Shown: in pieces, positions 24,778-27,160 of the stretch
Layout of the letters: every line of letters starts with the position of its first letter
How positions within the stretch are numbered: position 1 is the stretch's first letter
NCBI GenBank assembly: GCA_964597675.1
Contig: CAZQYV010000002.1
Location: forward strand, 7,532 to 71,531
Direction: 5' to 3'
Length of the DNA: 64,000 bases
Origin: an uncultured Candidatus Saccharibacteria bacterium
Lineage (GTDB): Bacteria > Patescibacteriota > Minisyncoccia > Phycocordibacterales > DATDWN01
The notes under the pieces: generated by a model
What the model was told of the DNA's origin: nothing
Databases searched by the model: none
The model's input: the letters and a program-made list of their open reading frames with translations, nothing else
Position numbers and translations under genes: made by a program

Positions 24778-24861
24778 TATTAAAGTAGGATCAGCTAAAT
24801 ATTGCTGAAAATACCGTAAAATGATCAAAGTTAGCCATATTTTAGGAAAGTAAAAACCCCC

Positions 24862-24891
24862 TTGACTTTTATATATTAAATGGTGTATAAT
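24862..24891 (+). promoter_or_regulatory. near-consensus sigma70 promoter (TTGACT-18-TGtTATAAT)
   Basis: direct read. Confidence 0.6.
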
Positions 24892-24906
24892 ATGGGGAGG
24901 TAGTTC

Positions 24907-24918
24907 ATTCACGTGAAT
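24907..24918 (+). promoter_or_regulatory. 12-bp perfect palindrome ATTCACGTGAAT between promoter and RBS (candidate operator)
   Basis: direct read. Confidence 0.5.
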
Positions 24919-24943
24919 TCAATTTATATCAGGAGATGAAACA

Positions 24944-25753
24944 ATGAAAAGAGCAGATCTGCAGTCCCTCGACCTGGTTTCCCCGGATTATGTCATTGCC
25001 CACGCGCTTGTACAAAAAGCCAGGGGGAGGAAACCGTCGATGTCATTTCGGGGCATCAGAAACCCGAATAAAGCGCTCTGTCGCGCACGCGCGGAGATGA
25101 GCAGGAATCTTCTGTTGAAGTTTGACGCGTTCGACACTGCCATGAAGTTGACTGGCGTGTCCTACAAGGAAAGTGAGGCAACCTCCGCCATCGGCGTGGG
25201 ACTCTTCATCGGCGCCAACAACCTCAAGAGACAGGTGCTGAGTTCACTCGATGACACGCATTATTTGACCACGCTCACGGAGTACCTCCGAATCGCAAAG
25301 GAAGAAGAGTTCGAGATCGTTCTGGAAGTGCCTTTCCTTGGCTATGACCACAAGCAAGAGAGCTTGTTCGTGCTTTTCAACAAAGCAGACGGCATCCTCC
25401 TCTGCTTCGACACCTACGGCGGCAAAAAGGTCAACGGCGGCCACTTCTACTACAACTGGATTCCCAACGGCAGCTGGCGTGAAGCTTCCTGTTTCACTTC
25501 AAGTGGTGGTTTTCACGAAATCGATGGACATCTCATCTGGAGTGGAGACCACGATTGTCGGGAAGCTCTGCGCGCACATTTGGCGGGACTCAGGGATCAT
25601 GGCAAATTCGTCACTCCATGGAAGGACCAGCCATTCCTTTGGCTTCTCCACTACATGGATACTAAGGTCGAAGGTTACGACCACAAGGCCATTACCGAGA
25701 GTCGGATTGGTCAGTTTCCCGACGAGATCAAGAACGCCATTCGACCAGCGTAG
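24944..25753 (+). CDS. hypothetical protein, GC-rich (~53% GC), likely horizontally acquired
   Basis: 269 aa ORF with AGGAGA RBS; composition strongly deviates from flanks. Confidence 0.6.
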   Translation: MKRADLQSLDLVSPDYVIAHALVQKARGRKPSMSFRGIRNPNKALCRARAEMSRNLLLKFDAFDTAMKLTGVSYKESEATSAIGVGLFIGANNLKRQVLSSLDDTHYLTTLTEYLRIAKEEEFEIVLEVPFLGYDHKQESLFVLFNKADGILLCFDTYGGKKVNGGHFYYNWIPNGSWREASCFTSSGGFHEIDGHLIWSGDHDCREALRAHLAGLRDHGKFVTPWKDQPFLWLLHYMDTKVEGYDHKAITESRIGQFPDEIKNAIRPA

Positions 25754-25771
25754 TATCACAACCGCCCCAAG

Positions 25772-25800
25772 AGCCGCTCGCTCTCTGGGCGGCTTTTTAT
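25772..25800 (+). terminator. rho-independent terminator
   Basis: agccgc-tcgctctctgg-gcggct + TTTTTAT. Confidence 0.65.
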
Positions 25801-25818
25801 ATGGAAATCCACAACTCC

Positions 25819-26304
25819 TCACAAATAACTATCAAAATATATTGCGTGACATGTGTAGCCACCGGGGTTCTTTTGCAGATAATCCTGGTGGTATTCCTCG
25901 GCTTCATAAAACTCACCCAAGGGCTCTATGGTAGTGACAACAGGATTCTCCCATCGCTTTGATGCATTCACGATATCAATGAAATGTTCTGCCTCCTTTT
26001 TCTCATCTTCATTTCCATAAAATATTGCAGAACGATATGATGTGCCACGATCATTTCCTTGCTGGTTCAGAGTTGTCGGGTTGTGTATTTGAAAGAAAAA
26101 GTCGAGTAGTTTTTTATACGATGTCTTTTCGGTGTCATATTCAATTTCGACTGCCTCAGCATGTCCCTCGTGGTTTTCATAGGTAGGGTGTGCGACTGTG
26201 CCTCCCGTATAGCCAACACGAGTCCGGACTACACCAGTTTGTTTTCGGATCAAATCTTGGAGACCCCAGAAACACCCTCCTGCGAGTACAATTTTTTTAA
26301 CCAT
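25819..26304 (-). CDS. msrA: peptide-methionine (S)-S-oxide reductase MsrA
   Basis: VLAGGCFWG active-site motif. Confidence 0.85.
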
Positions 26305-26311
26305 ATTATAA

Positions 26312-26668
26312 TTATTTTCCAGGAATAAATTTCATCGAAATAGAGTTTACACAATATCTCTGATTTTTCGGAGTCAGTTGCTCTCCGAGAAAGAGGTGAC
26401 CAAGGTGACCTCCACATGTGGCACAGGTAATCTCGGTGCGCACACCATCTGCATCGAGACTTTTGTGGACGGCATCTGGTATCTCATCATCAAACGAAGG
26501 CCAGCCACAGTCTGATTCAAATTTGTCTTTGGAATTATAAAGGGGACTTTCACATTGTCGGCAGACATACACACCGGTCGCTTTGGTGTTTACATATTCA
26601 CCGGTAAATGGTGCCTCTGTCCCTTTGTTAATAATAATTTCTTCTTCTTCAGGTGTAAGTTTATTCAT
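26312..26668 (-). CDS. msrB: peptide-methionine (R)-S-oxide reductase MsrB
   Basis: CGWPSF, CxxC zinc pairs, [17 protein letters not shown]. Confidence 0.85.
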
Positions 26669-26775
26669 GAGGTAATTGTATCAAATAATAATTTATTGGA
26701 AAAATTTTATATAGGATGGCATATATGAGAATATCTATATTTTAAGCCACCTATTGTTATAATATACTATATAAC

Positions 26776-26811
26776 TTGACAAAAATGTCATTTAGGTGTA
26801 TAATGTATACA
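26776..26811 (+). promoter_or_regulatory. consensus sigma70 promoter (TTGACA-17-TATAAT) with overlapping palindromes TGACAaaaaTGTCA and TGTATAATGTATACA
   Basis: direct read. Confidence 0.6.
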
Positions 26812-26827
26812 GAAGGAGGTGAGCAAA

Positions 26828-27115
26828 ATGGCGGCTTACAATGCCTATTTTGAAATCACCAATCAGGGTGGAAATTTGTTTTCCCACTCTGAAAAATTTC
26901 TGGTCCAGGGCTTGTCCAAGGTCCGGATTCAGGAAGACAAGAATATGTTTTGGTCAGACTGGTCTGGGACTGTGCAGCGGTTCTACGCTCGGTCCGGAAA
27001 GCCCTTTGCTGTGGTTGTCACCAAGAAAGGCTGGACTGAGTCCAGTTACGGCTCGGTCCGAGACACTAGCGAGGTCCGCGTGATCCTCGCAGGTGCAGAG
27101 GTCACTGATCACTAG
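26828..27115 (+). CDS. hypothetical small protein, GC-rich (~52%)
   Basis: ATG 7 nt after AGGAGGTG; ORF track lists GTG start at 26819. Confidence 0.5.
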   Translation: MAAYNAYFEITNQGGNLFSHSEKFLVQGLSKVRIQEDKNMFWSDWSGTVQRFYARSGKPFAVVVTKKGWTESSYGSVRDTSEVRVILAGAEVTDH

Positions 27116-27123
27116 CCATGCTT

Positions 27124-27160
27124 AACCCCGCTCACCGGATATCCGGTCGGCGGGGTTTCA
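27124..27160 (+). terminator. rho-independent terminator
   Basis: aaccccgc...ccggatatccgg...gcggggttt. Confidence 0.6.

Follow-up and report, generated by a model that had tools for sequence, protein, structure and literature searches.

Two GC-rich single-gene transcription units, probably acquired independently, in the AT-rich chromosome of a Saccharibacteria bacterium

A 64-kb stretch of an uncultured Candidatus Saccharibacteria genome (contig CAZQYV010000002.1, positions 7,532 to 71,531; hereafter the window, with coordinates counted from its first nucleotide) carries two small GC-rich genes in an otherwise AT-rich background. Gene A (24944-25753, plus strand) encodes a protein of 269 amino acids (aa) and gene B (26828-27115, plus strand) one of 95 aa, and each lies with its own expression signals in what we refer to as cassettes A and B. 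We consider it probable, at roughly 0.7, that the two cassettes are independent, laterally acquired and transcriptionally autonomous single-gene units with the anatomy of phage morons. An earlier note, made from the letters of this DNA alone, had described them as compact, self-contained transcription units of foreign composition. That description is borne out by the analysis, as each unit comprises a promoter, a ribosome-binding site (RBS), an open reading frame (ORF) and a terminator, and each deviates in its GC content at third codon positions (GC3).

The window as a whole has a GC content of 40.7%, and its 50 other ORFs average 0.400 ± 0.041 for GC and 0.334 ± 0.065 for GC3. Gene A reaches 0.530 for GC and 0.656 for GC3, and gene B 0.517 and 0.625, corresponding to z = +5.0 and z = +4.5 on GC3 relative to these 50 ORFs. 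The windowed GC profile displays two peaks, one at each gene, with sharp switches at the cassette edges. Together with the z-scores, this profile confirms both genes as compositional outliers. The contrast originally proposed needs a small correction, however: the two genes do lie well above their surroundings, but the background is about 40-41% GC and not 38%. The resident genes msrA (25819-26304, minus strand; PMSR domain) and msrB (26312-26668, minus strand; SelR domain) are located between A and B in the reverse orientation. Both are of usual composition and have clear Pfam matches, indicating that A and B indeed flank the msrAB pair.

Both genes are directly preceded by near-consensus sigma70-type promoters. 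The promoter of cassette A (24862-24891, plus strand) combines a -35 element TTGACT (24862-24867), an 18-nt spacer and a -10 element TATAAT (24886-24891) in GGTGTATAAT, matching 11 of the 12 consensus positions. The promoter of cassette B (26776-26804, plus strand), with TTGACA (26776-26781), a 17-nt spacer and TATAAT (26799-26804), matches all 12. These were the top two matches in a scan of 12 kb for sigma70-type promoters. Over the whole window, nine sites match at least 11 of the 12 positions, against 2.5 expected, and the cassette B promoter is the sole complete match. Translation would start from strong RBSs located 8 nt 5' of the ATG in both cases, AGGAG for gene A (24931-24935, plus strand; CAGGAGA is kept in all copies of the cassette) and AAGGAGG for gene B (26813-26819, plus strand; read from the sequence). 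Downstream, gene A is followed by an intrinsic terminator (25762-25798, plus strand) consisting of a hairpin at 25762-25792 (dG -20.6 kcal/mol, z = -3.2) and a T-run (TTTTT), and gene B by a terminator hairpin at 27124-27157 (plus strand; dG -26.1 kcal/mol, z = -5.8), both being stable folds. The promoters, RBSs and hairpin terminators are thus as the earlier note had read them. Its remark that the promoters are of the same style is only partly sustained: GGTGTATAAT is common to the promoters of A and B, but more than 120 unrelated IMG/VR contigs contain TTGACA-N12-14-GGTGTATAAT. This is a generic strong promoter, and the style does not prove that the two come from one source. The cassette B promoter also shares a longer stretch, GGTGTATAATGTATRCAG, with the gene A promoter of another copy of cassette A (locus L016), a match that is no more than suggestive.

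The mobility of cassette A is most directly visible from its other copies. At 82-85% protein identity, the cassette is found in three other, unrelated contexts, where it adjoins a TPM-phosphatase gene (L014), a large serine recombinase gene (L015) or unrelated small ORFs (L016). In the alignment, similarity starts about 10 nt 5' of the -35 element, continues through the leader and the ORF, and runs to the T-run of the terminator, which is kept in the other copies and forms the 3' limit of the conserved module. Beyond these two ends the flanks are random between copies. In all four copies TTGAC and GGTGTATAAT are invariant, while the promoter spacer has diverged. The genomic contexts of the wider set of gene A homologues also all differ. 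Pairwise comparison of the four copies yields dN/dS ratios (nonsynonymous to synonymous substitution rates) of 0.13-0.20 at dS 0.43-0.62, and ratios this low point to purifying selection, by which the gene A protein is kept functional in each host.

Every copy of cassette A is GC-richer than its surroundings (0.53-0.565 vs 0.37-0.445), and the same holds for a more distant homologue, 47% identical, in another context of the candidate phyla radiation (CPR), with a GC content of 0.514 against 0.389 in its flanks (L007). Expressed as an offset over the flanks, gene A in the window is at +0.125 and the copies at L014, L015, L016 and L007 are at +0.12 to +0.17. As a control, the same difference was taken at 32 phage loci in genomes of 0.25-0.64 GC, where it amounted to 0.000 ± 0.026. 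An offset near zero in phages implies that the gene A family has no built-in GC bias. As far as composition can tell, the offset of +0.125 indicates a recent arrival from a putative donor of ~53-57% GC, which is also the composition of the nearest phage homologues (L145, L147 and L148). Lateral acquisition of cassette A is hence well supported, by the recurrence of the same module in four unrelated contexts and by a family GC content that equals genome GC in phages but not here.

Gene A belongs to the phrog_36907 family, for which no function is annotated. Its residues 56-266 match positions 9-222 of the 224-position profile (E = 1.5e-33), and the preceding 55-residue N-terminal extension is conserved in the closest homologues, located on CPR-like or unassigned contigs. 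The homologues form 211 clusters at 90% identity. Relatives are present on 41 IMG/VR contigs, many of them 100-330 kb in length, and in cultured phages, namely the Xanthomonas jumbo phage XacN1 (ORF012) and Microbacterium jumbo phages (Big4 gp249); one more relative (L005) resides on a contig with T4-like early-region genes. Other relatives are distributed patchily over CPR metagenome-assembled genomes (Parcubacteria, Yanofskybacteria, Saccharibacteria). Two peptide patterns matched only 5 of 185,579 species-representative genomes, and gene A is therefore not a core gene. Neither gene A nor gene B matches Pfam, NCBIfam or PADLOC-DB 2.0 (PADLOC at E <= 0.1). The earlier statement that their products have no recognisable domains holds for these collections, but not in full, given the match of gene A to phrog_36907.

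The AlphaFold model of the gene A protein, built from a 41-sequence alignment, has a mean predicted local distance difference test score (pLDDT) of 96 and a predicted template modelling score (pTM) of 0.88. The chain begins with a helical part and ends in helices, and in between it forms a sheet of six to seven mostly antiparallel strands. Comparison with BFVD, a library of predicted viral structures, returned as the only significant matches (E <= 0.001) uncharacterised proteins of the phages BcepSaruman and Motura, at a template modelling score (TM) of ~0.7. No signal peptide or membrane segment is seen in the sequence, and the product is likely a cytoplasmic alpha+beta protein. A set of invariant or nearly invariant polar residues (D104, Y114, D156, N164, S186, S187, H203, D204, R206, E207, H236, D239 and R254), which includes those of a GDHDCRE loop, suggests an enzyme or a specific ligand binder. 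A Cys-His-Asp triad (C205/H236/D239) was considered and dropped; several homologues that are otherwise conserved have Gly or Ala in place of C205, making a cysteine nucleophile unlikely. Across 39 phage loci the family has no recurrent neighbour, from which it appears that the protein works alone. In phage Big4, gp249 (L138, record 136583-144015; 27% identity to A) is located among NAD-salvage genes encoding a nicotinate ribosyltransferase, a PnuC-like transporter and an adenylyltransferase. For the function of gene A this is at most a lead, as a single phage cluster at 27% identity is too thin a basis.

Gene B represents a rare orphan family. A word-indexed search matched only the copy of a sister strain, and when 1.84 billion cluster representatives were searched exhaustively with HMMER, 15 matched. 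Six of these are clear relatives (88-145 aa, 44-50% identity), and some of the remainder are weak matches to beta-sandwich repeats (PEGA, CarboxypepD_reg regions) of large proteins. The structural model is all-beta and of moderate confidence, with a pLDDT of 86 for the best model and 56-63 for the other four. The product is accordingly a very rare, small cytoplasmic protein with a predicted all-beta fold. Of its relatives, the one at L139 is chromosomal, in an array of small ORFans with an Ile-tRNA synthetase gene alongside; that at L141 is part of a low-GC array whose small ORFs all point the same way; and that at L143 adjoins an ISL3 transposase fragment. None was found in cultured phages or IMG/VR. 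A 262-aa ORF beside the gene B homologue of L141 was examined as a possible connection between the two cassettes and discarded, as it is not a homologue of A.

The history of gene B can be followed through the sister strain (L001 and L186, from other samples; 95.3% identity), in which the gene likewise lies between msrB and the GDSL hydrolase gene. Relative to L001, dS is 0.065 for gene B, 3.3 times lower than for the flanking GDSL gene (0.217) and trxB (0.216). At the nucleotide level, 26752-27239 shows 1.8% mismatches to the sister strain compared with 5.3% in the flanks, and 26752-26970, which spans the B promoter, shows none relative to L001. The lower dS and the fewer mismatches would make cassette B younger than the split of the strains, which implies exchange between lineages. 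Along with its composition and rarity, this renders lateral acquisition of gene B reasonably supported. The A and B families co-occur nowhere else among the 192 loci examined, which argues for two independent acquisitions instead of a pair. Just downstream of cassette B, the GDSL hydrolase gene probably starts at 27208, 6 nt past a TG-extended -10 element, TGCTATAAT (27193-27201), making it a candidate for a leaderless mRNA; an alternative ATG at 27118 crosses the gene B terminator and is not kept in the sister strain.

The leader of gene A contains a perfect 12-nt palindrome, ATTCACGTGAAT (24907-24918), a candidate operator. There are 12 perfect palindromes of this length in the 64 kb, which amounts to ~0.011 expected per 60 nt, and this one is single-copy within the window. 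It is intact in three of the four cassette copies and carries one mismatch in the fourth, at the dS of 0.43-0.62 that separates them. A 12-nt element should rarely survive such neutral divergence, which makes the palindrome noteworthy. An RNA structure in the leader was considered and rejected, the single-sequence fold having z = +0.7 and the alignment fold reaching -3 kcal/mol with covariation near nil. With neither a stable fold nor covariation in the leader RNA, protein binding at the DNA level is the better reading, and we infer that the conserved CACGTG-centred palindrome may be the site of a dimeric regulator, probably not an RNA element. The inverted repeats over the B promoter (26777-26811), TGACA-N4-TGTCA (26777-26790) and TGTATA-N3-TATACA (26797-26811), behave differently: repeats of these two kinds number 117 and 44 in the window, which is chance level. 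All palindromes pointed out in the earlier note are thus present, but only ATTCACGTGAAT is rarer than chance and conserved.

These observations can be combined into a probable course of events. Gene A stems from a protein family living mainly in large or jumbo phages and circulates among CPR-like genomes as a module of ~0.95 kb, reaching exactly from promoter to terminator, that has retained the ~53-57% GC of its putative donor. Both cassettes would have been inserted among housekeeping genes (tRNA-Glu, msrA, msrB, the GDSL hydrolase gene and trxB) of an AT-rich chromosome, with gene B being exchanged between the sister lineages after their split. Judging by its near-consensus promoter, gene A is presumably transcribed by the host sigma70-type RNA polymerase, and a dimeric regulator might bind the CACGTG-centred palindrome, ~10-20 nt past the likely transcription start. 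As to the purpose of gene A, phage-host or phage-phage conflict is the likeliest arena, though this is a guess of rather low probability, made from its being a stand-alone accessory gene common to phages and hosts. A rather speculative extension, to which we attach little weight, would have cassette A as a minimal mobile expression module with an enzyme of new fold, common to it and jumbo phages, for CPR-phage conflict, shuttled by phages or integrative elements, the operator's regulator travelling separately or being supplied by the host.

Several results weigh against this scenario. No prophage, integrase or transposase that might have served as the vehicle of transfer is seen in the 64-kb window. 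A search for an empty site with the GDSL protein as query returned only L144 from the same organism, L001 and L186 from the sister strain, and non-syntenic homologues at 53% identity; the syntenic relatives already carry the genes, and insertion is accordingly deduced and not seen. For gene B, a phage origin is unsupported, and its model found no match in the PDB with Foldseek (best E 0.026, TM < 0.45). Likewise, Foldseek retrieved nothing from the PDB for the gene A model (best E 0.13, TM < 0.25), and profile searches of PDB sequences gave no match. With respect to regulation, the more distant CPR copy at L007 is without the palindrome, and the gene A leader is 77-89% identical among copies, above the third-codon-position identity of 72-77%. 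The whole leader is thus conserved, the palindrome is not uniquely constrained, and conservation is the sole argument for its operator function.

The explanation put forward in the earlier note was that both genes are repressor-controlled immunity, toxin or defence genes, with the palindromes as operators of a repressor encoded elsewhere. We consider it unlikely in this form. The gene A palindrome does fit the proposal, being rare, kept in three of four diverged copies, located just 3' of the promoter and embedded in a leader without a stable RNA fold, which favours a DNA-level site. The operator of a repressor-controlled gene is usually repeated elsewhere, such as at the gene of the repressor; in the window, neither a second copy of the palindrome nor a cognate regulator was found, and a search of IMG/VR for the operator motif returned two matches, both non-palindromic variants in unrelated contexts. 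With the B repeats at chance frequency, only the A palindrome is unusual, and repressor control of the two genes is not sustained. Stand-alone phage-derived genes that are kept by hosts often serve exclusion or defence, which counts in favour of such a role. HK97 gp15 is an example of a phage-derived exclusion or defence gene (PMC3594210). Against it stand the lack of any PADLOC or Pfam match for either protein, the lack of an adjacent partner gene or of a conserved neighbour in the 39 phage loci, and the failure of A and B to co-occur elsewhere. The proposed immunity, toxin or defence roles hence found no support, and like repressor control they are guesses.

The neighbourhood of tRNA-Glu (23909-23981, plus strand) offers another explanation for the presence of cassette A. 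The 3' end of this tRNA gene, TCCCGGTAGGGTCAC (23967-23981), recurs with 13 of 15 matches at 24763-24777, and the segment between the tRNA and this repeat (24010-24777, plus strand) contains a low-GC ORF and a GC-rich structured non-coding stretch. The ORF (24010-24615, plus strand; 201 aa, with a hydrophobic N-terminus) has a GC content of 0.274 and a GC3 of 0.213, an outlier in the direction opposite to A and B, and gave no match in Pfam, PHROG, PADLOC (at E <= 0.1) or NCBIfam. The non-coding stretch (24640 to about 24780-24800, plus strand; dG -54.6 kcal/mol, z = -3.4) has no Rfam match and resembles none of the sequences that lie upstream of the cassette in its other copies. Further tRNA ends are duplicated nearby: the 3' end of tRNA-Ser, GGCGGAGGAGGGGAGA, has an exact 16-nt copy 187 nt away (23484-23499 and 23671-23686), and the first 11 nt of tRNA-Glu are repeated ~70 nt upstream (23840-23850 and 23909-23919). 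These duplications look like att-type scars of past integrations, and the segment at 24010-24777 is the probable scar of an older one just 5' of cassette A. The locus thus looks like a hot spot for foreign DNA, though gene A lies outside the bracketed segment.

Cassette A might then be part of a decayed integrative element at tRNA-Glu, with 23982-25800 as the remnant island and A not separately inserted. Besides the repeated tRNA-Glu end and the aberrant composition of the segment it brackets, the large serine recombinase gene beside the cassette at L015 agrees with this idea. We nevertheless regard it as quite doubtful. The repeat lies 5' of A, leaving A outside the bracketed segment, and the window contains no integrase. 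Were it not for its exact coincidence with the tRNA end, the repeat, with an exact seed of 10 nt in 3.7 kb, would be about as frequent as expected by chance, and nothing in the flanks of the other cassette copies recurs at this locus.

A native origin of both genes, with the high GC3 resulting from codon selection for high expression or from the amino-acid make-up of the family, is highly improbable. The very strong promoters and RBSs of both genes would be in line with high expression, and the gene A homologues on some CPR contigs (L002, L003, L009 and L010) exceed the GC content of their flanks only slightly. However, the essential genes ftsZ, gyrA and tsaD in the same window have a GC3 of only 0.36-0.37, and the GC content of the family follows that of its phage genomes over a range of 0.25-0.64, which shows that high GC is not imposed by the protein. 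The recurrence of near-identical modules in unrelated contexts and the patchy phyletic distribution also speak against a native origin. Finally, the sharp composition switches at the cassette edges could recall an assembly chimera or contamination, with GC-rich reads of another organism stitched into the CPR contig, but the chance of this is negligible: L144, a contig assembled from another run (SRR12762304), matches 4,830 nt of the window (23952-28781) without a difference and across all junctions, L001 and L186 have gene B within 95%-identical flanks, and the edges coincide with promoter and terminator and not with arbitrary points.

Other features of the window deserve mention. The segment 23094-23475 (plus strand) is a candidate structured non-coding RNA of ~350 nt, with fold z-scores of -4.1 on the plus and -3.4 on the minus strand. 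It has a promoter-like TTGACA-17-AATACT (23094-23122), a terminator-like hairpin, AAGCGGCTCCTCTGCGAGCCGCTTTTCC, at ~23443-23470, and no plausible ORF, those present being short and overlapping. Rfam returned nothing for it, even at E < 1. At 22320-23012 (minus strand), a 230-aa ORF that overlaps the end of tRNA-Val has a weak N-terminal helix-turn-helix match and an LGEG motif faintly recalling LAGLIDADG. A low-GC stand-alone gene at 28782-29168 (minus strand) encodes a 23S rRNA intervening-sequence protein (PF05635), and five tandem small genes at 44153-46563 (plus strand) all belong to the T4SS_pilin family PF18895. Two adjacent genes at 46648-49140 (minus strand), one with an SPFH/Band 7 domain and the other without a Pfam match, have moderately raised GC3 values of 0.51 and 0.49 and may represent another, older acquisition.

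Little is understood of the accessory genes of CPR (Patescibacteria), whose genomes are small. Cassette A offers a clean, well-bounded case of genes passing from phages, jumbo phages among them, to CPR chromosomes, in which the transferred unit is delimited to the nucleotide and still compositionally unameliorated. In other respects this is an ordinary horizontal acquisition. The gene A family, being widespread, strongly conserved and confidently modelled while having no solved or annotated relative, is a reasonable target for structural and functional work.

Comparison with known systems places the cassettes closest to phage morons while setting them apart from other small mobile units. Type II toxin-antitoxin and polymorphic-toxin immunity genes are similarly small, mobile, patchy and of foreign composition; A, however, is monocistronic, with no two-gene layout, family match or conserved partner in the loci examined. 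With tRNA-linked genomic islets the locus shares foreign DNA beside tRNA-Glu and a repeat of the tRNA 3' end, but here there is no integrase and the repeat brackets a segment 5' of A and not A itself. Integron gene cassettes resemble A as one-gene modules across differing contexts, yet they are promoterless, end in attC and require IntI, whereas cassette A has its own promoter and ends plainly in a terminator; an integrase was not seen among the ORFs examined in the window, and no dedicated search with attC models was made.

Phage morons, in the sense of Hendrix and Juhala, are defined by their own promoter and terminator, a deviant GC content and a position as an extra insertion between genes that adjoin each other in related phage or prophage genomes (PMC3594210). 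A and B differ from morons such as HK97 gene 15 in their location, as they sit between housekeeping genes of a chromosome in which no prophage can be recognised, and no relative with an empty site was found. They agree with them in anatomy, each pairing one ORF with a promoter and a terminator of its own as predicted from the sequence, in a GC content unlike that of the neighbours, and further in horizontal spread and in homologues within phage genomes, a phage link that is direct for A and not shown for B. Within the phrog_36907 family itself, the CPR-type copies of A are distinguished from the ORFs of jumbo phages by their chromosomal location and discordant GC content, and they carry the 55-aa extension together with a conserved promoter and leader.

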